Of a stretch of DNA of 14,551 bases, positions 793 through 14,155 are shown piece after piece; position 1 is the first letter of the stretch; each line of letters begins with the position of its first letter. The translations under genes were made by a program, and so were the position numbers. Origin of the DNA: Trueperaceae bacterium (lineage in GTDB: Bacteria; Deinococcota; Deinococci; Deinococcales; Trueperaceae). The notes under the pieces are model-generated. The model made no database searches. It had not been told where the DNA came from and saw only the letters and a program-made list of their open reading frames with translations. Location: contig JBBDRK010000042.1 in the NCBI GenBank assembly GCA_040905465.1, forward strand, positions 18,918-33,468. The letters are read 5' to 3'.

Positions 793-1401
793 ATGCCATT
801 CTTCGAATTCGGTGGCGGCCGCCTCGAGGCGATCGTCGGTCCAATGTTCAGCGGCAAGTCCGAAGAGCTGATCAGACGCGTGAACCGGGCGCTCATAGCC
901 CGTCAGGAAGTGCAGGTGTTCAAGCCTGCGATAGACGATCGCTACGAACTAACGGCGGTTGCCTCCCACACCGGCAGGCGCATGGAGGCGCTGCCGGTAG
1001 ACGGAGCCGCGAGCATCCGTGCGCTCCTGCGCGAGGACGTGCGGCTGGTGGCGTTCGACGAGTGCCAGTTCTTCGAGGAGGATATTGTCGAGCTGGCGCT
1101 CGAGCTCACCGACGACGGCAAGCGAGTCATCGTGGCGGGCCTCGATCTCGACTTTCGAGGCGAACCTTTCGACCCCATGCCGCGCCTGTTGGCGCATGCG
1201 GAGTTGGTGGAGAAGCTGACCGCCATCTGCCGTTGCGGCAGGCAAGCGACCCGAACCCAGCGGCTTATCGCGGGAGCCCCAGCCCATTACGACGATCCGG
1301 TGATCCTGGTGGGGGCGGCCGAGCGTTACGAGCCGCGCTGCCGCGAGTGCCACGTGGTGCTGCGCGAAGCGCGTTCGATGCCGCTGTTCAGCGGTGTCTG
1401 A
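793..1401 (+). CDS. tdk: Thymidine kinase
   Basis: Walker [24 protein letters not shown], Walker [21 protein letters not shown], Zn-binding lasso ICRCG...YEPRCRECH. Confidence 0.97.
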
Positions 1402-1517: not shown

Positions 1518-3494
1518 GTGCATACGGAGAATCATTCGCAGACGGCCGCTTTCCTCTGGTCGATCGCTGAACTGCTACGAGGGGATTTCAAGCAGTCCCA
1601 GTACGGCCGCATCATCCTCCCGTTTACCCTGCTGCGGCGCATGGAGTGCGTGCTGGCCGATACCAAGGCCGCGGTACTGAGCGCAGCCGGCGAGCATACC
1701 GGCAAGTCCGAAAATTTGAGGGAACAGCTGCTGCTACGGGCATCTGGTCAGCAGTTCTTCAACACCTCGCCGCTCACGCTCGCCACCTTGTCGGACACGC
1801 AGACCGCCGACGATCTGATGAGCTACGTGCAGTCGTTCAGCCGGGACGGGCGGGAGATCTTCGAGCACTTCCATTTCGAGGACTTCGTGCAGCAGCTCAA
1901 ATCCAACGACTTGCTCTACCAGGTGGTGCAGCGCTTCGCCTCGGTCGACCTGAGCCCGGCGAGGATCAGCAACTTCGGCATGGGCATAGTGTTCGAGGAG
2001 CTGATCCGCAGGTTCGCCGAGAGCTCGAACGAGACCGCGGGCGAGCACTTCACCCCGCGCGACGTAGTACACCTCACCACGTCGCTGGTAATCACCGGTC
2101 AGGACGAGAAGCTCAAGCCTAACGGAATCGTCACCATCTACGACCCGACGGCAGGAACCGGCGGCTTCCTCTCGGAGGGGGACGAGTACATCCAGTCGAT
2201 CAGCGAGAAGGTCACCGTGTCGCTGCACGGCCAGGAGCTGAACCCGGAGTCGTACGCGATCTGCAAGGCGGACATGCTGATCAAGGGTCAGGACGTGAGT
2301 AACATCAAGTACGGCAACACCCTTTCGGAAGATCAGCTCGCCGACCAGCGGTTTGACTTCATGCTCAGCAATCCACCTTTCGGGGTGGAGTGGAAGAAGG
2401 TCCAGAAGCAGGTAAGGGACGAGCACACCAAGCTCGGGTTCGGCGGCCGTTTCGGCCCAGGGCTCCCGCGAGTGTCCGATGGTTCCCTCTTGTTCCTGCT
2501 GCACCTGGTCAGCAAGATGCGTGACGCCCGCGAGAGTGGTTCGCGAATCGGCATCATCCTCAACGGCTCTCCGTTGTTCACGGGCGGCGCCGGCAGTGGC
2601 GAGTCGGAGATCCGCCGTTACCTGATGCAGTACGACCTGGTGGAAGCGATAGTCGCCCTGCCGACGGACATGTTCTACAACACCGGCATCGCCACGTACG
2701 TCTGGCTGCTGAACAACAACAAGTCTGCCCGTCGCAAGGGCAAGGTGCAGCTGATCGATGGCAGCGAGCACTTCAGCAAGATGCGCAAGTCGTTGGGCAG
2801 CAAACGCCAGTACATCAGCAACGAGCAGATCGCTGACCTGGTGCGCTTGTACGGCTGTTTTGAGGAGACGCCCAAGAGCAAGATCTTCCCCACGGAAGCG
2901 TTCGGCTACCGGCGCATCACCGTGAAGCGGCCGCTGCGCCTTTCGTTCCAGGTGAACGAGGAGCGAATCGCTTTGGTGCTGGAAGAAAAAGCCGTCCAGA
3001 AGCTGGACGAAGAAGCGCGAGAGCGGTTAATGGGGGCTCTGCGGGCCATGGACGGCAGCGCTGTGTACATGAACCGAGAGCTGTTCGCGACGGAACTGGA
3101 GGCGGCGCTGGAGAAGTGCGGAGTGCCGGCGAGCGCGGTGGTCATGAAGGTGCTGATCAACACCTTGGGCGAGCGGGATCCTGATGCCGACGTCTGTATG
3201 AGCAAGGGGCAGCCCGAAGCGGATACCGGTCTAAGGGACTACGAGAACGTGCCGCTGGGCGAGTCGGTCTACGAGTATTTCGAGCGTGAGGTGAAGCCGC
3301 ACGTGCCGGACGCCTGGATCGACGACTCGAAGGTCGACGCCCAGGACGGCCAGGTGGGCGTGGTGGGCTACGAGATCCCGTTCAACCGGCACTTCTACGT
3401 GTTCAAGCCGCCGCGTCCCCTGGAAATGATCGATAGGGACTTGAAGATCAGCACGGACCGGATCAAGCGGATGATCGAGGAGTTGTCGGCGTGA
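1518..3494 (+). CDS. hsdM: Type I restriction-modification system methyltransferase subunit M (m6A)
   Basis: HsdM N-terminus (FLWSIAELLRG...ILPFTLLRR), GEHFTPR, SAM-binding YDPTAGTGG, catalytic NPPF, LPTDMFYNTGIATY. GTG start preceded by GGAG at 1507-1510. Confidence 0.97.
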   Translation: MHTENHSQTAAFLWSIAELLRGDFKQSQYGRIILPFTLLRRMECVLADTKAAVLSAAGEHTGKSENLREQLLLRASGQQFFNTSPLTLATLSDTQTADDLMSYVQSFSRDGREIFEHFHFEDFVQQLKSNDLLYQVVQRFASVDLSPARISNFGMGIVFEELIRRFAESSNETAGEHFTPRDVVHLTTSLVITGQDEKLKPNGIVTIYDPTAGTGGFLSEGDEYIQSISEKVTVSLHGQELNPESYAICKADMLIKGQDVSNIKYGNTLSEDQLADQRFDFMLSNPPFGVEWKKVQKQVRDEHTKLGFGGRFGPGLPRVSDGSLLFLLHLVSKMRDARESGSRIGIILNGSPLFTGGAGSGESEIRRYLMQYDLVEAIVALPTDMFYNTGIATYVWLLNNNKSARRKGKVQLIDGSEHFSKMRKSLGSKRQYISNEQIADLVRLYGCFEETPKSKIFPTEAFGYRRITVKRPLRLSFQVNEERIALVLEEKAVQKLDEEARERLMGALRAMDGSAVYMNRELFATELEAALEKCGVPASAVVMKVLINTLGERDPDADVCMSKGQPEADTGLRDYENVPLGESVYEYFEREVKPHVPDAWIDDSKVDAQDGQVGVVGYEIPFNRHFYVFKPPRPLEMIDRDLKISTDRIKRMIEELSA

Positions 3495-4843
3495 GCTTCC
3501 CGAAGTACCCGAAGTACAAGGAGTCGGGGGTGGAGTGGTTGGGGGAGGTACCGGAGCATTGGAGACTGCGGCCACTCTGGACGATGTTCCGTAGAGAAAA
3601 ACGAACCGGCTTCCCGGAAGAGCCGTTACTCTCGGTCTATCGTGATTATGGAGTAATTCCAAAGTCGTCACGTGACGACAATTTCAATAAAGCTTCGGAA
3701 GACTTGGCTGCTTATCAGTTGGTGCTTCCTGGTGATTTAACAATCAACAAGATGAAGGCGTGGCAAGGTTCCGTCGCAATATCGGGACACCGAGGAATAG
3801 CCAGTCCTGCATACCACGTTTATCAGAGCCATCATCATGAAAGTCGTCGGTACCTTCACTACCTTTTTAGGTCGGCAGAGTATATTTCCAGCTACCTTTC
3901 GCGCTCAAAAGGAATTCGAGTCAATCAGTGGGATCTGGAGCCCCAGCAGCATTCGAGGATGGCTGTTCTGATGCCTCCCAGGGAAGAACAATGCGGCATC
4001 GCGCACTTTTTGGACGGCGAGACCGCCAAGATCGACGCCCTTATTGCTGAACAGCAACGCCTGATCGGCTTGCTCAAGGAGAAGCGCCAGGCAGTGATTT
4101 TGCAAGCAGTGACCAAGGGCTCCGATCCCTGTGTAACGATGAAGGATTCTGGTGTGGAGTGCCTGGGAGAAGTACCGGAACACTGGCAGATCGCAGCCTT
4201 GAAGAACTACGTGCATGTTATTGACTGTAAGCATGTGACGGCCGACTTAACTGACCAGGGATATCCGCTGGCGAGTATCCGAGAGGTCCAAGAGTTCGAG
4301 GTCAACTTAGCAACGGCGAAGAATACCAGCGAGCACTATTATCGGATTCTCACTGAAGGAGGGCGAAAGCCGAAGGTTGGTGACATTATCTATAGTCGAA
4401 ACGCAACTGTGGGCGAGGCAGCGCTCGTCGCCTCGCACGAAGATTTCGCGATGGGACAAGATGTATGTCTGCTTAGATGGAAACGACAGGAAATGTCCTC
4501 TGCCTACCTAGGCTATCAGTTGCGGTCGCCAGCAGTACTCTCGCAACTTGAGCAGTTAATGGTCGGTGCAACTTTTCGACGGATAAATGTAGACGCGATT
4601 CGACAGTATATTGTGGTTGTTCCGCCACCAATTGAGCAACACGCCATTGCTAACCACCTGGCAGTATTACTTTCCGAGATCGATGCTATGCGGAATGATG
4701 CGGACGGTTTGATCGCCCTTCTCCAGGAACGCCGCTCCGCCCTGATCTCCGCCGCCGTCACCGGCAAGATCGACGTTCGCAACTGGCGGCCTCCGAACGA
4801 CCAGCAGCCCCCTGAGCCCGCAAGGGAAGTGGTTCATGGCTGA
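3491..4843 (+). CDS. hsdS: Type I restriction-modification system specificity subunit S
   Basis: Two-TRD architecture with repeated conserved segments KESGVEWLGEVPEHW / KDSGVECLGEVPEHW, PPREEQ / PPPIEQ, and C-terminal LQERRSALISAAVTGKIDVR. GTGA overlap with the hsdM stop. Confidence 0.96.
   Translation: MSFPKYPKYKESGVEWLGEVPEHWRLRPLWTMFRREKRTGFPEEPLLSVYRDYGVIPKSSRDDNFNKASEDLAAYQLVLPGDLTINKMKAWQGSVAISGHRGIASPAYHVYQSHHHESRRYLHYLFRSAEYISSYLSRSKGIRVNQWDLEPQQHSRMAVLMPPREEQCGIAHFLDGETAKIDALIAEQQRLIGLLKEKRQAVILQAVTKGSDPCVTMKDSGVECLGEVPEHWQIAALKNYVHVIDCKHVTADLTDQGYPLASIREVQEFEVNLATAKNTSEHYYRILTEGGRKPKVGDIIYSRNATVGEAALVASHEDFAMGQDVCLLRWKRQEMSSAYLGYQLRSPAVLSQLEQLMVGATFRRINVDAIRQYIVVVPPPIEQHAIANHLAVLLSEIDAMRNDADGLIALLQERRSALISAAVTGKIDVRNWRPPNDQQPPEPAREVVHG
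3518..4186 (+). repeat. Diverged 45-nt direct repeat (3518-3562 and 4142-4186) encoding the conserved segments preceding each HsdS TRD
   Basis: aaggagtcgggggtggagtggttgggggaggtaccggagcattgg versus aaggattctggtgtggagtgcctgggagaagtaccggaacactgg. Differences are mostly third-position. Confidence 0.85.
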
Positions 4844-7800
4844 CAGCAGGGAGACGGTCTTCCAGCAGGAGATCATCGACGCCCTGTGCGCCCAGGGTTG
4901 GTGCGTGGGCACTTCGTCCGGTTATGACCGTGCCAATGCTGTCTATACCGAGGATCTCCTGGGCTACTTCGAGGATGCGTATCCGGAGCGTTTGGAGAAG
5001 TTCCGCAAGAACAACCCTATCGATCCCGAGAAGACGCTGGTGCGGCAGACCGTGCGGGCGTTGGAGCAGGACGGGACGCTGAGTGTGCTGCGGCACGGTT
5101 TCAAAGTGCCCGGCGTCGAGGTCGAGCTTTGCAGCTTCAAGCCAGACCACGGCATGAATCCGGAATCGCTAGTGCGCTACCGGGCCAATCGACTGCGGGT
5201 GGTCCCCGAGCTCTCCTACTCCCCCTTTGCTCGTGACGGCGAGCACAACCCTCGGCTCGATCTCGTCCTGTTCGTAAACGGCATCCCCACGGCGACCTTA
5301 GAGTTGAAGAGCGAGTTCAAGCAGCCGGTGGAGAACGCCAAGCGGCAGTACCGCAAGGATCGGCCGGTCAAGGACCCGCACACGCGAAAGCCTGAGCCGC
5401 TGCTGGCGTTCAAGCGGGGCGCGTTGGTTCATTTCGCCGTGAGCCAGCATGAAGTTGCGATGAGCACCCGGCTCGGCGGCATCGACACCGCCTTCCTGCC
5501 CTTCAACCTAGGCAGCGAGGAGGGTGGCGCCGGCAACCCGAGGCCGGAACGCGAAGACGCGTACGCCACGGGGTACCTGTGGGAGCGGCTGTTCCAGCCG
5601 GACGCATGGCTGAAGGTGCTCGGTCGCTTCCTGCACCTGGAGAAGAAAAGGGTGGAGGACTTTTTCGGCAAGGTGACGACTCGGGAGACGATGATCTTCC
5701 CTCGTTATCACCAGTGGGAGGTCGTCAACGAGCTGGTCGAGACCACCAGGCAAGAGGGACCGGGAAAGCGTTACCTGGTGCAGCACAGCGCCGGCTCGGG
5801 AAAGTCGAACTCGATAGCCTGGACGGCGCACCAGCTTGCGTCGCTTTACGACGGCGATGAGCGGCGCTTGTTCGATTCGGTGATCGTGGTGACCGACCGG
5901 ACGGTGCTCGACAGCCAGTTGCAGGACACCATCTACCAGTTCGAACACGCCCAGGGCGTCGTTGTGCCGATCACGAGGGATATCGGCAGCAAGAGCAAGT
6001 CCGAGCAGCTGGCGGAAGCTCTGGCGGCCGGAACGCGAATCGTGATCGTTACGATCCAGACCTTCCCGGCGCTCTACGACGCCTTGGACAAGTACCCGAA
6101 GTTGGCCGCCGGTAGTTACGCGGTCATCGCCGACGAAGCCCACTCTTCGCAGACCGGCACTTCAGCCAATAAGCTGAGGGCAATACTCGGGAGTGACCGA
6201 CCAGATGACGAGGAGATCAGCGCCGAGGAGCTCCTTCAGGCGGCGGTAGCTTCCCGCAGGCCCAGCGACCGCATCAGCTACTACGCCTTCACGGCGACTC
6301 CCAAGGCCAGGACCCTGGAACTCTTCGGCCGGGCCCCCGACCCTTCCTCGCCCCCGAGCAGCGACAACAAGCCCGAGGCGTTCCACCTCTACTCGATGCG
6401 TCAGGCGATCGAGGAGGGTTTCATCCTCGATGTGCTCAAGCGCTACACGCCCTACAGCACGGCCTGGAAGCTCGCTCACCCCGATGACGACGATGAGGTG
6501 GACTCGAAGCGAGCCAGGAGGAAGCTGGCGCGCTGGGTGCGGTTGCACCCGTACAACATCAGCCAGAAGGTGGAAGCCATCGTCGAGCACTTCTGCGAGC
6601 ACGTTCGGCACCTGTTGGATGGCCAGGCCAAGGCGATGGTGGTGACGAGCAGCAGGCAGGAAGCGGTGCGCTACCAGTTGGCAATGCTCGCTTACGTTAG
6701 AGAGAAGAGTTACGGCGACGTGCACCCGCTGGTGGCGTTCTCCGCCACGGTTCTGCCGGACGAGGTCATCCCCGAAGAGGTGAGCGAGAACAGCCGGCTG
6801 CTCAATGCCGGCCTGTCAGGCCGGGATTTGGCCGAGGCCTTTGACACGCCAGATTTCAATGTGCTGATCGCCGCGAACAAGTTCCAGACCGGGTTCGACC
6901 AACCGAAGCTGTGCGCGATGTACGTGGACAAGAAGCTGCAGGGCGTGGATTGCGTGCAGACGCTATCCAGGCTGAACCGCACCTTCCCCGGCAAGGAAAC
7001 CTTTATCCTCGACTTCTTCAACGACCCTCAGGACATCCTGGAAGCGTTCCTGCCGTATTACAACAGGGCCGAACTGGCCGACGTCTCGGACCCGCAAGTG
7101 GTGTACGACCTGCAGAAGAAGCTCGATGAGGAACAGATCTACCATCGAGATGAGGTCGAGCGGTTCGCGGAGGCGTTCTTCGACCCGAAGGCGGCTACCG
7201 CGAAGCTGAGTTACTACTGCATCCCCGCCAAGGAGCGGTTCGCCGGCAGGTTCAAGGCCGCCGAGGAGGCCAGGCGGCAGGCGCGGACCATACGCGGCAT
7301 CGCGGAGCGCAACGGCGACAAGGTGGGGGTGCAGAACGCCGAGCACGCCGAGAAGGAGGCCGGCGAGGCTGTTGACCAGCTGGAACTGTTCAAAAAGAAC
7401 TTGAGGAGCTTCGTGCGAGTGTACGAGTTCCTCTCCCAGATCATCGACTACGACGATGTCGAATTGGAGCAGTTGAACGTCTACGCCAGTCACCTCTACC
7501 CGCTGCTGCAGGCCAACCGGCTGGAGGAGGCCGACGTGGATGTCTCTGAGCTGTCGCTCACGCACTACCGGCTGACCAAGCAGGCCGAGTTCAGGCAGAG
7601 ACTGGATGAGGAGACCGGCGAGTACACCCTCAAACCCATCAGTGACGTCGGCAGTGGCAAGCCCTTCGATCCCGAGAAGAGACGCCTCTCGGAAATCATC
7701 GAGGCCCTCAACGATATGTTCGGAGCAGAGGTCAGCGACGACGACAAGCTGCACTTCGCCTCCGGTGTTGCTGATCGCATCTGCCGCGACGAGGACGTGA

Positions 7801-8012
7801 TGACCCAGGTGAACGAGCACACCCCGGAGCAGGTGATGCACGGCCTGTTTCCCAGGCGGGTCGTGGATGCTGTCATCGACGCCATGACCGATCACGAGAA
7901 GTTGTCGATGGAAGTCTTGGACGATGAGAGCAAGAGCCGCAACTTCGCTTGGTTGATATTGAAGATGCTTGCCGGCACCGGCCCGGCGTCGGGCCCCGGA
8001 CGCGGAGCCTGA
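4836..8012 (+). CDS. hsdR: Type I restriction endonuclease subunit R
   Basis: PD-(D/E)xK nuclease motif RLDLVLFVNGIPTATLELK, Walker A HSAGSGKS, DEAH box IADEAHSSQ, FTATPK, TGFDQPKL, QTLSRLNR. 8-nt overlap (ATGGCTGA) with hsdS. Confidence 0.97.
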   Translation: MADSRETVFQQEIIDALCAQGWCVGTSSGYDRANAVYTEDLLGYFEDAYPERLEKFRKNNPIDPEKTLVRQTVRALEQDGTLSVLRHGFKVPGVEVELCSFKPDHGMNPESLVRYRANRLRVVPELSYSPFARDGEHNPRLDLVLFVNGIPTATLELKSEFKQPVENAKRQYRKDRPVKDPHTRKPEPLLAFKRGALVHFAVSQHEVAMSTRLGGIDTAFLPFNLGSEEGGAGNPRPEREDAYATGYLWERLFQPDAWLKVLGRFLHLEKKRVEDFFGKVTTRETMIFPRYHQWEVVNELVETTRQEGPGKRYLVQHSAGSGKSNSIAWTAHQLASLYDGDERRLFDSVIVVTDRTVLDSQLQDTIYQFEHAQGVVVPITRDIGSKSKSEQLAEALAAGTRIVIVTIQTFPALYDALDKYPKLAAGSYAVIADEAHSSQTGTSANKLRAILGSDRPDDEEISAEELLQAAVASRRPSDRISYYAFTATPKARTLELFGRAPDPSSPPSSDNKPEAFHLYSMRQAIEEGFILDVLKRYTPYSTAWKLAHPDDDDEVDSKRARRKLARWVRLHPYNISQKVEAIVEHFCEHVRHLLDGQAKAMVVTSSRQEAVRYQLAMLAYVREKSYGDVHPLVAFSATVLPDEVIPEEVSENSRLLNAGLSGRDLAEAFDTPDFNVLIAANKFQTGFDQPKLCAMYVDKKLQGVDCVQTLSRLNRTFPGKETFILDFFNDPQDILEAFLPYYNRAELADVSDPQVVYDLQKKLDEEQIYHRDEVERFAEAFFDPKAATAKLSYYCIPAKERFAGRFKAAEEARRQARTIRGIAERNGDKVGVQNAEHAEKEAGEAVDQLELFKKNLRSFVRVYEFLSQIIDYDDVELEQLNVYASHLYPLLQANRLEEADVDVSELSLTHYRLTKQAEFRQRLDEETGEYTLKPISDVGSGKPFDPEKRRLSEIIEALNDMFGAEVSDDDKLHFASGVADRICRDEDVMTQVNEHTPEQVMHGLFPRRVVDAVIDAMTDHEKLSMEVLDDESKSRNFAWLILKMLAGTGPASGPGRGA

Positions 8013-12200: not shown

Positions 12201-13481
12201 TCAGGGTTGCAGCCGGCTGCCGTCTCGCGGAAACGCCCGCGCGAAGCGGACGTTGGGGATTCCTAGCAGCAGCGCGGTAAGCCGTTCCGCACCGGCGGCA
12301 AAGCCGCCGTGAGGCGGCATGCCGTGGCGGAAGACCTCGAGGTAACCGCTGAAAGCTTCCGGGTCCATGTTGCGCTTGCGCAGTTCGGCAACCAGGTCGT
12401 CGTGGCGGTGGATGCGTTGGCCGCCGGAAGTGATCTCGACACCCCGAAACAGCAGGTCGAGACCGCGAGTCAGGCCGTCTTCGGTGGGGTAGGTGTAGAA
12501 CGGCCTCGCCGCCTGTGGATAACGCGTGACGAAAACGAAGTCGCTGGCGTGCTCCTCTTGCGCCCAACGGCCCAGCAGCCGCTCGGCCTCCGGATCGAGA
12601 TCCTTGCCGCCGGTGGTATGGCCGAAGCGTTCCTTCACCAGCTCGCGGGCTTCGAGCAGAGTGATCCGCGGTATCGGCACCGAGGTGTCGGGCACGCTTG
12701 CGCCCAGGGTCTTCAACTGGGCTCCGCACCGCTCCCTTACCGCGTCCATCATCGCCTTGATGGCCTCCTCCTGGAGAGCCATGACGTCGCGATCATCCTC
12801 GATGAACCCGAACTCGACATCGAGCGACAAGTACTCCGAGAGGTGCCTGGTGGTGTGGGACTGCTCCGCCCGGTACACCGGGGCAACCTCGTACACTCGT
12901 TCGAACACGGCGACCATGATCTGCTTGTAAAGCTGCGGCGACTGTGCCAGGAAGGCGCGCTTGCCGTAGTAATCGACCTCGAACTGGTTGGCGCCGCCTT
13001 CGGCACCGGCCGCAACGAGCTTGGGCGTGAAGATCTCGGTGAATCCGCGGGTGTCGAGGAAGGCCCTGAACGCCTTGACGAGCTCCGCCTGAACCTTGAG
13101 CGTGGCCTGCGCCTTCACCCCGCGTACGGTGACGTGCCGGTACTGCAGCAGCGTTTCCGGGTTGGCGTGCCACTCCTCCTTGGGAATCTCCACCGGCGGC
13201 GGGGCTATCGCTTCACTGATCGTCTCCAACCGCTCGGCCTGGAGCTCCAGCCCCGAGGGAGCCTTGGCATTCTCCACGACCCGACCGTGCACGCGGACAC
13301 AGCTCTCGAACAGGGGCAGCTCGGTCCCGCTGAACACGCATTGAATGAGACCGCTGCCGTCTCGGAGCAGGAGGAACTGGATTCCTCCGAGGTCGCGCCG
13401 GTTGTGGACCCAACCGTGCACTGTCACTTGCCGACCGACATGCTCGGGCAGGCTGACGATCGGTACTGCTGGTGCGGTCAT
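12201..13481 (-). CDS. aspS: Non-discriminating aspartate--tRNA(Asp/Asn) ligase, short archaeal-type (AspRS2)
   Basis: OB-fold GWVHNRRDLGGIQFLLLRD, motif 1 GFTEIFTPKL, AEGGA, LAQSPQLYKQ, motif 2 YRAEQSHTTRHLSEY, EITSGGQRIH, motif 3 GMPPHGGFAAGAERL. 426 aa with no bacterial GAD insertion. His (WVH) and Pro (KAPSG) sit at the positions associated with tRNA-Asn recognition. ATG 13481 has a GGAAG SD-like sequence upstream. Confidence 0.95.
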   Translation of the reverse strand: MTAPAVPIVSLPEHVGRQVTVHGWVHNRRDLGGIQFLLLRDGSGLIQCVFSGTELPLFESCVRVHGRVVENAKAPSGLELQAERLETISEAIAPPPVEIPKEEWHANPETLLQYRHVTVRGVKAQATLKVQAELVKAFRAFLDTRGFTEIFTPKLVAAGAEGGANQFEVDYYGKRAFLAQSPQLYKQIMVAVFERVYEVAPVYRAEQSHTTRHLSEYLSLDVEFGFIEDDRDVMALQEEAIKAMMDAVRERCGAQLKTLGASVPDTSVPIPRITLLEARELVKERFGHTTGGKDLDPEAERLLGRWAQEEHASDFVFVTRYPQAARPFYTYPTEDGLTRGLDLLFRGVEITSGGQRIHRHDDLVAELRKRNMDPEAFSGYLEVFRHGMPPHGGFAAGAERLTALLLGIPNVRFARAFPRDGSRLQP

Positions 13482-13506
13482 GGCGGCTTCCAATGGGTCA
13501 CGCTCC

Positions 13507-13536
13507 AAAAAAACCCGAGGCTTGGAACCTCGGGCT
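13507..13536 (-). terminator. Intrinsic terminator (attenuator) in the aspS leader
   Basis: Minus strand AG-CCCGAGG-ttccaag-CCTCGGG-TTTTTTT: perfect 7-bp GC stem, 7-nt loop, U7 tail, ending about 25 nt before the aspS ATG. Confidence 0.9.
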
Positions 13537-13558
13537 GAACGGCGGTAGAGGACGGCGT

Positions 13559-13639
13559 CTAGCTTCCGAGGGTACCCGCATCGGAATTATCCGGGTTCGA
13601 ATCGCAAGCCGGGGACCGCACATGCGGATCAGACGCCAT
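13559..13639 (-). CDS. Putative Asp/Asn-rich leader peptide (26 aa) MASDPHVRSPACDSNPDNSDAGTLGS
   Basis: ATG at 13639, 8 nt after the -10 box; TAG at 13559-13561. Cluster DSNPDNSD (13580-13603) has 5 Asp/Asn codons in 8. Lies between the promoter and the terminator upstream of the Asp/Asn synthetase. Confidence 0.7.
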   Translation of the reverse strand: MASDPHVRSPACDSNPDNSDAGTLGS

Positions 13640-13647
13640 AGTCGAGC

Positions 13648-13676
13648 ATGGTAGCAGGGAGCATCTCCGGTGTCAA
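13648..13676 (-). promoter_or_regulatory. Sigma70/SigA-type promoter of the aspS leader
   Basis: TTGACA (13671-13676), 17-nt spacer ending TGc, TACCAT (13648-13653). Confidence 0.88.
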
Positions 13677-13756
13677 CGACGACGTGCAGGACGCAAGGCA
13701 CTGTTTCGCCGGCTCTCCCGGCCGCCGATTGCCGTCCGCCAGCGGTCTGAGTACGG

Positions 13757-14155
13757 TCAGGAGTGATTGCGCAGGTAAGACTCGATCAACCGTATGTGTT
13801 CTTCGTCCTTGGGCCTGGCCAGGCGCCGCTTGAAAGCGAGAACGGCGTCCAGCGTCACGCACGGCAGTCCCGCCACCAGGCTCGAGCTGTCGACAAGCTC
13901 GTCGGCGTCGTCACCCAGCCAGCCGTTGAATATCTCCACTCCGGGAAGCGGCCGCACGACGTCGTCCAGGCGGGCCTGTTCGGCGGCTGCCAGGGTGAGC
14001 GCATGGCGCCACGCCGCCCCGCGCGACACGATATCGACGTCGTTGATCTCGTCGACCAGCCCGTAAGCCAGCAAGGGGCCGCTGCCGTGCAGGGCGAAGT
14101 CACCGGCGGGCAGGCGCAGTTCGGTGACCAGGCGCTTCACCTCGGGCAGCTTCAT
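13757..14155 (-). CDS. Small Pol-beta-superfamily nucleotidyltransferase-like protein (132 aa)
   Basis: hGS...DxD signature FALHGSGPLLAYGLVDEINDVDIV, a third acidic strand VEIF, and C-terminal K...RPKD helix typical of minimal NTase-fold proteins. Confidence 0.7.
   Translation of the reverse strand: MKLPEVKRLVTELRLPAGDFALHGSGPLLAYGLVDEINDVDIVSRGAAWRHALTLAAAEQARLDDVVRPLPGVEIFNGWLGDDADELVDSSSLVAGLPCVTLDAVLAFKRRLARPKDEEHIRLIESYLRNHS

Follow-up and report, generated by a model that had tools for sequence, protein, structure and literature searches.

The pheST attenuator of Escherichia coli, which belongs to the leader-peptide attenuators on aminoacyl-tRNA synthetase genes, includes a leader peptide (pheM) with its own Shine-Dalgarno sequence and 5' leader, and senses one amino acid. 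T-box leaders bind uncharged tRNA directly and need no translation. In Deinococcus deserti, mapping of transcription start sites placed 14 leaderless leader peptides ahead of tRNA-synthetase and amino-acid genes; in the sections of that report on these peptides, the transcripts begin at, or 1 nt ahead of, the AUG, the peptides are rich in the cognate residue, and attenuation is proposed (PMC4007540). Its main text names cysS (two Cys codons) and trpEGD, and the other 12 peptides are placed in supplementary Table S9 (PMC4007540). Here we describe the leader of aspS2, the gene for an archaeal-type non-discriminating aspartate--tRNA(Asn) ligase (AspRS2), in a stretch of 14,551 nt from a genome of the Trueperaceae, in the phylum Deinococcota; this whole stretch is called the window below. 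We conclude with high confidence that this leader is a ribosome-mediated leader-peptide transcription attenuator with both Asp and Asn control codons.

The elements of the leader and its gene are listed below with their coordinates on the minus strand of the window, from the promoter to the gene.

13671..13676, minus strand: -35 hexamer TTGACA, found by promoter scan (10 of 12 matches), with a 17-nt spacer to the -10 hexamer
13648..13653, minus strand: -10 hexamer TACCAT, from the promoter scan, with TG ahead of the hexamer
13559..13639, minus strand: leader open reading frame (uORF) of 26 codons plus TAG, MASDPHVRSPACDSNPDNSDAGTLGS, from the translation of open reading frames (ORFs), with the ATG at 13639 and the TAG at 13561-13559
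13630..13639 with 13552..13561, minus strand: 10-bp helix of the minimum-energy fold, joining the 5' end (AUG included) to the stop codon and the bases just past it
13580..13603, minus strand: control codons D13 (13603-13601), N15 (13597-13595), D17 (13591-13589), N18 (13588-13586) and D20 (13582-13580)
13581..13586, minus strand: segment 1, UUCCGA, which can pair with UCGGAA at 13569-13564
13556..13571, minus strand: segment 2, the 5' arm of the antiterminator, CCUCGG-aa-GCU-a-GACG, overlapping the last uORF codons and the stop codon
13528..13541, minus strand: segment 3, the 3' arm of the antiterminator and at the same time the 5' arm of the terminator, CGUU-c-AGC-CCGAGG
13507..13536, minus strand: intrinsic terminator from the terminator scan, with the stem 13536-13526 paired with 13522-13512, the loop CCA and a U run to 13507
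13503..13506, minus strand: GGAG, the likely Shine-Dalgarno sequence of aspS2, directly past the U run; relatives have the same layout of GGAG and then start
12201..13493, minus strand: aspS2, with its start at TTG 13493 or ATG 13481

Most of this arrangement had been proposed in an earlier note made from the letters of the window. The promoter TTGACA-17-TACCAT is present as proposed, and so is the uORF, whose ATG lies 8 nt past the -10 hexamer and which holds four Asp codons, all of them GAT, together with two Asn codons (AAC and AAT). The three pairings given for the RNA (UUCCGA with UCGGAA, CCUCGG..GCU.GACG with CGUU.AGC.CCGAGG, and CCCGAGG with CCUCGGG) were all located where the note had put them. 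Between positions 13200 and 14000 we detected one promoter-like site, against 0.1 expected from shuffles of this 800-nt region, and one terminator-like site, against 0.3 expected; the terminator stem comprises 11 pairs, six of them G-C, and is followed by U7. The gene after the terminator is aspS2, as had been claimed, with 545.8 bits to the profile NF003483 (cut-off 353, E 7e-164) and 392.1 bits to TIGR00458 (cut-off 368.4). The ATG at 13481 had been taken as its start, and this part of the claim needs revision, given that the TTG at 13493, in the same frame and 9 nt past the GGAG, appears the likelier start by analogy with relatives.

We compared this locus with related leaders upstream of 54 non-duplicate Deinococcales aspS2 loci from five families, namely L001-L030, 14 loci that remained of a set of 20 after removal of four duplicates and of two loci belonging to other phyla, and L051-L060; the aspS2 gene itself was present in each of the 41 genomes of the first search. 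Of the 54 loci, 46, drawn from all five families sampled, have a short uORF that contains an Asp/Asn cluster and lies ahead of a G+C-rich hairpin. The uORF was also present in 28 out of 28 further Deinococcaceae loci (25 recovered by script and three, with a GTG start, by eye), and all 32 Deinococcaceae loci that were read carried an Asn/Asp leader, with M-x-A-A-x-N-N-V-N-D-D-P-R as the typical peptide. Most leaders of Trueperaceae and Deinococcaceae end in U-rich tails.

A covariance model built from 30 Trueperaceae leaders (R1) matched 97 out of 128 Trueperaceae genomes, a tally that counts one unpublished genome, G111, and becomes 96 out of 127 without it. Nearly every matching genome was matched once, and the matches covered 65 of the 79 good-quality genomes and 29 of the 36 genera. 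In the window's own genome R1 gave one strong match, which is the leader itself, and a second match (E 0.63, 12.9 bits) corresponding to the same terminator on the opposite strand; across that genome the model found no copy of the leader besides the one at aspS2, for example ahead of gatCAB, asnS or aspS1. About 12 further R1 matches were obtained in relatives, and we inspected three of them; both strong ones lie ahead of a second copy of aspS2, which ties the element to aspS2. The third, a weak match in genome G024, was rejected as a further leader, being an ordinary terminator at a gene end.

The Asp and Asn codons of these leaders follow the reading frame. In the final stretch of 46 uORFs, at most 12 sense codons from each, Asp and Asn account for 161 of 527 codons in frame (30.6%), compared with 7 of 481 (1.5%) and 4 of 481 (0.8%) in the other two frames; the enrichment is thus specific to the reading frame. 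Three consecutive codon columns stand out in the 30 aligned leaders, with Asp in 17 out of 30, Asp in 24 out of 30 (D17 of the window) and Asn in 28 out of 30 (N18). Across families the Asp and Asn residues persist while the nucleotides differ, and the 5' half of the uORF is free in length and sequence among relatives. Conservation of the peptide is limited to the D/N cluster and a C-terminal LGA, and this LGA is the translation of RNA segment 2.

The codon choice within the cluster also differs from that of the downstream genes. AAT makes up 56 of the 86 Asn codons in leaders versus 71 of 327 in aspS2 genes, and GAT 47 of the 95 Asp codons versus 197 of 899; in the 36 loci with a third-position G+C fraction (GC3) of at least 0.75 the shares are 39 of 66 versus 13 of 215 for AAT and 33 of 72 versus 80 of 708 for GAT, all these figures overstating significance, as the relatives are not independent. 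The earlier remark on the use of GAT in spite of a high GC3 therefore generalises, in that NAU codons are enriched in the leaders relative to aspS2.

The helices were assessed on an alignment of 30 Trueperaceae leaders (A1) with 500 shuffles as controls, and here too the relatives are not independent, so that the shuffle and Fisher figures overstate significance. The terminator helix was paired in 94.4% of the cells and showed changes on both sides in 5 of 9 pairs, which was reached by none of the 500 shuffles, and slid controls were far lower. For the antiterminator, formed in this alignment by CUCGGGG at the end of the uORF (segment 2) and CCCCGAG (segment 3), 88.6% of the cells were paired and both-side changes were found in 4 of 8 pairs, a count reached by one out of 500 shuffles; its covariation score was reached by none. 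In two loci (L017 and L023) segments 2, 3 and 4 are altered in step. Judged from this alignment, the terminator and the antiterminator that competes with it show compensatory changes. The earlier note had asked for a conserved D/N-rich uORF and covarying stems in related upstream regions, and both were found, the first in 46 of 54 loci and the second in the 30-leader alignment. The attenuator reading is supported by the recurrence of the uORF, the D/N cluster, the promoter spacing, the terminator and the antiterminator in five families.

The start of the transcript can be approached from the same set of 46 leaders. A TANNNT sequence lies 5-12 nt ahead of the uORF start in 46 out of 46, with a gap of 7-8 nt in 27 and of 9-11 nt in 19 of them, and a TTGACA-like box (at least 5 out of 6 matches) is found 16-19 nt further upstream in 45 out of 46. 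A Shine-Dalgarno-like word precedes the uORF in only 5 of the 46. The natural inference from this spacing is that the uORF would be leaderless or nearly leaderless.

We then considered where a ribosome would stand on this RNA. A ribosome was assumed to cover about 12-13 nt past the first base of the A-site codon, and we mimicked it by masking the window RNA to a point at most 13 nt downstream of that base. When the codons D13 to N18 were placed in the A site and segment 4 was not yet made, the antiterminator folded at -18.6 to -20.5 kcal/mol. When the stop codon occupied the A site, a structure of -1.8 kcal/mol remained and the terminator (-19.6 kcal/mol) then formed. The conserved D-D-N codons lie 23, 20 and 17 nt ahead of segment 2, and the stop codon about 10 nt past the start of segment 2; in the other families of the order, segment 2 directly follows the stop codon and the D/N codons are nearer to it. 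The stall geometry that had been claimed for this leader is thus borne out in the modelled RNA, where the conserved Asn codon is 17 nt ahead of segment 2 and the masked folds behave as the claim requires, and by these folding energies the attenuator model is coherent.

Taken together, we infer from the sequence a transcription start, translation of the uORF, ribosome stalling and regulated readthrough that would work as follows. Transcription would start at, or within 1-2 bases of, the AUG of the 26-codon ORF, so that the RNA translated into the peptide would have no 5' leader or almost none. With charged tRNA-Asn and tRNA-Asp in good supply, the ribosome would reach the UAG and cover segment 2 (13571-13556); segment 3 would then pair with segment 4, the terminator with its U7 would form, and the RNA polymerase would stop ahead of aspS2. 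When charging is low, the ribosome would stall on the Asp/Asn codons, above all on Asn18, leaving segment 2 free to capture segment 3 before segment 4 is made, and aspS2 would be transcribed. Asp-tRNA(Asn) is the product of AspRS2 and the substrate from which GatCAB forms Asn-tRNA(Asn); since AspRS2 is the first step toward Asn-tRNA(Asn), the device would place the first enzyme of the pathway under feedback from the end product.

In the absence of a ribosome, the terminator folds together with the helix that joins the 5' end to the post-stop bases; this helix dominates that fold, forms a duplex of -15.8 kcal/mol in the window and does not appear in the earlier note. In relatives (n=35) the partners of this helix have a mean energy of -9.5 kcal/mol with their own partner versus -8.8 kcal/mol when swapped (permutation p 0.047), and owing to this weak comparative support we did not retain it as a conserved element. 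On a leaderless RNA, such a helix could close the start codon once the region has been transcribed. The whole leader folds with z = -2.64 relative to shuffles, of which 3 out of 200 fold equally well or better, and the minimum-energy fold pairs bases beside the GGAG of aspS2.

A more elaborate version of the mechanism makes the leader a dual-input sensor of both tRNAs served by AspRS2, tuned by NAU codons, limited to one ribosome per transcript and invented repeatedly as a control over asparagine synthesis on tRNA; as a whole we consider this version doubtful. Its sensitivity would be set by the rare NAU codons, which would be read by tRNAs with a queuosine position, and the genome of the window carries tgt. 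On the leaderless RNA, pairing of the 5' AUG with the post-stop bases would shut off the start codon once one pioneer ribosome had loaded, so that each transcript would be interrogated once.

Several results weigh against the attenuator, or against parts of it, in addition to the dependence among relatives already stated. The hairpin of segments 1 and 2, which had been claimed as a protector, has its pairing bases in the window; its equivalent in relatives is paired in 74.9% of the cells, and the covariation was matched by 171 of the 500 shuffles, so that the bases stand and covariation above the controls does not. The leader is unclear in eight of the 54 loci, with none in L016, L020, L021, L040, L042 and L043, a degenerate one in L014 and one cut off by the contig end in L038. 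R1 found no match in 31 of the 128 Trueperaceae genomes; together with the leaderless loci, this indicates that the device is dispensable in some lineages. The hairpins of two Thermaceae-like loci (L026 and L030) lack a U run and lie directly against the Shine-Dalgarno sequence, and the read-out may therefore differ there.

The remaining points of this kind concern the genome of the window, a 95%-complete assembly in 81 contigs. This genome encodes a bacterial-type AspRS1 (707 bits), AsnRS (452 bits) and GatB (500 bits), all over their cut-offs. AspRS2 and GatCAB reportedly make asparagine on tRNA in Deinococcus and Thermus, and the set of AspRS1, AsnRS, GatB and AspRS2 matches the enzyme set reported for those genera. 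No AsnA was found in the assembly, and for AsnB we recovered only one AsnB-like gene below the threshold (168.8 bits, cut-off 267.1 bits); as this gene is present, AspRS2 with GatCAB as the sole asparagine route is not supported for this genome. ARAGORN identified 38 tRNA genes in the whole assembly, including two tRNA-Asp(GTC) and no tRNA-Asn, and the missing tRNA-Asn is probably a gap in the 81 contigs.

Among the other explanations, it is quite improbable that the uORF is translated and regulatory yet acts by altering mRNA stability, the access of Rho or the exposure of the ribosome-binding site of aspS2, in place of intrinsic termination. The GGAG immediately after the U run, the pairing of its neighbouring bases in the minimum-energy fold, and the hairpins of L026 and L030 would fit such a read-out, whereas the terminator of the window is a textbook one, with its 11-pair stem and U7, and the U-rich tails in most Trueperaceae and Deinococcaceae leaders likewise point to termination.

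We regard as very improbable a structured RNA that senses directly, without translation, whether as a T-box-like element, as a riboswitch for a small molecule or as an operator to which AspRS2 itself binds (in E. coli, ThrRS binds in this way to its own mRNA), with the uORF being incidental. Such a sensor would agree with the ribosome-free fold, in which a 10-bp helix closes a structure of several helices and which has the z value given above, and with a T-box-like match below the gathering score (44.1 bits) ahead of the Dehalococcoidia homologue at L049. It is at odds with the conservation, across families, of the reading frame and of Asp/Asn codon identity in place of nucleotides, with a uORF 5' part that is free in length and sequence, with a start codon at a fixed distance from the -10 box, and with the weak support for the closing helix in relatives. 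Rfam gave no matches at the gathering score over the whole window, and with the threshold relaxed to E 10 the region 13400-13800 yielded chance-level matches only (terminator-containing sRNAs, best E 0.21), with neither a T-box nor any other family match beyond these. By these scans a T-box, a riboswitch and a known sRNA were ruled out for the window, and the T-box match that had been set as a possible objection to the attenuator was not found in the leader with the covariance model. We also discarded a tRNA or tRNA-like gene, suspected from a TTCGAA motif, as ARAGORN detected no tRNA gene in the window and Rfam no tRNA match there.

That there is no regulation at all, and that we see a leaky constitutive terminator, an RNA-stability element or a functional micro-protein, is scarcely credible, since, even with six of the 54 loci lacking a leader, a promoter-terminator pair retained, together with a covarying competing helix, in about 100 genomes is difficult to account for unless it is a switch, and the only conserved parts of the peptide are the D/N cluster and the LGA, whose codons are RNA segment 2.

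Beyond the order, the T-box-like match at L049 (positions 850-1097, plus strand, RF00230, 44.1 bits, E 1e-8, gathering score 93) lies in a Dehalococcoidia metagenome-assembled genome, in a searched stretch that is incomplete at its 5' end. It indicates that RNA-sensing control of an aspS2-type gene exists elsewhere, and sensing systems may, on this sequence comparison, have been exchanged in front of the aspS2-type gene.

In family f5, the leaders of L057-L060 are the richest in Asp (e.g. MKCFFNNSADDDN); the genomes of these four loci have AspRS2 alone at E 1e-50 or better, and in three of the four there is no AsnRS-like second match.

We also looked at other synthetase genes of the window's genome. 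On contig C76 (11406-15328) the end of a hisS-like gene, aspS1, a HAD-like ORF and asnS follow each other in this order, and no D/N leader or terminator is visible in the regions upstream of aspS1 and asnS. A scan of the genome for sibling leaders gave three matches with a strict pattern and seven selected matches with a looser one, two of them ahead of metG and leuS. Upstream of metG (851 bits; contig C72, L076, minus strand) there is a uORF, MAWRMLNRSPVIR, 6-11 nt past a TANNNT sequence, and a G+C-rich hairpin and then a T run come after it; this uORF is a possible sibling leader, though it has a single internal Met. Upstream of leuS (1009 bits; contig C80, L077, plus strand) a uORF, MTDRRSLRLTEVRARR, with two Leu and six Arg codons, has the same promoter spacing and a 27-nt hairpin. 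Neither was retained as a Met or Leu attenuator, the peptides not being clearly enriched in Met or Leu.

Two further features of the window are given here.

13757..14155, minus strand: ORF of 132 aa just ahead of the leader, without a match in Pfam or NCBIfam
1518..8012, plus strand: complete type I restriction-modification system (hsdM, hsdS and hsdR), from Pfam

A NUDIX gene is also located upstream of the leader, on the minus strand, and a cytochrome P450 gene elsewhere in the window. The C-terminal motif ..RPKDE.HIRLIE.. of the 132-aa ORF recurs upstream of the leader in L003, L004, L006, L037, L039 and L079, and the neighbourhood of the leader is thus conserved. In L016 (genus g15) and L021 (genus g14), which have no leader, aspS2 directly follows a homologue of the 132-aa gene, and the ATG is immediately preceded by the bases ..TGCAATAATC.., which hold two Asn codons in one frame; R1 gave no matches in the five genomes of genus g14.

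The novelty that had been suggested for the leader stands in part. The class as such was published in 2014 for D. deserti (PMC4007540), and an Asp/Asn attenuator is unreported in the literature that we found. That search returned no Asp- or Asn-codon attenuator, no regulation of aspS2 and no account of how the AspRS2-GatCAB pathway is controlled, the D. deserti peptide list in Table S9 lying outside it, and the excerpts of PMC2965389 and PMC4833913 mention neither aspS nor asparagine. As all 32 Deinococcaceae loci carry an Asn/Asp leader, it may well be among the 14 peptides of D. deserti. The aspS2 leader is thus real and conserved, of a kind of attenuator already known, and this member is possibly in the D. 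deserti list.

If the mechanism is true, the cell would gauge charged tRNA-Asn, the true end product, and adjust the first enzyme, and leader-peptide attenuation would extend to two amino acids for which neither Rfam nor the literature found lists an attenuator. The leader would also offer, as far as its sequence defines it, a well-conserved case of attenuation on leaderless RNA, with ribosome loading without a Shine-Dalgarno sequence. The covariance model R1 allows the element to be annotated across Trueperaceae, and the leader could serve as a reporter of Asn/Asp charging in Deinococcus or Thermus.

Compared with the described systems, the aspS2 leader shares with the T-box leaders (RF00230) a choice between terminator and antiterminator that reflects tRNA charging at synthetase genes, and has no match to that family. 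With the trp, his, leu, thr and ilv attenuators of Proteobacteria, it shares the principle that the position of the ribosome decides between a terminator and an antiterminator that exclude each other; unlike the trp/his type, it would sense Asp and Asn, its target is a tRNA-dependent biosynthetic step, its 1:2 hairpin is not clearly conserved, and its segment 2 overlaps the end of the uORF. The likeness to pheST lies in a leader-peptide attenuator on an aminoacyl-tRNA synthetase gene, with control codons for the enzyme's own amino acid. In contrast to pheST, to which we found no relationship in Rfam or in sequence, the aspS2 uORF lacks a Shine-Dalgarno sequence and would start at or near the 5' end, and its two amino acids match the two tRNAs charged by the enzyme. 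The D. deserti leader peptides come from Deinococcus and the window from Trueperaceae, and the passages of that study on the peptides hold no antiterminator structures, covariation or phylum-wide survey, unlike the present analysis; they belong to the same phylum, and have the same kind of spacing between the -10 hexamer and the AUG as the aspS2 leader (PMC4007540).

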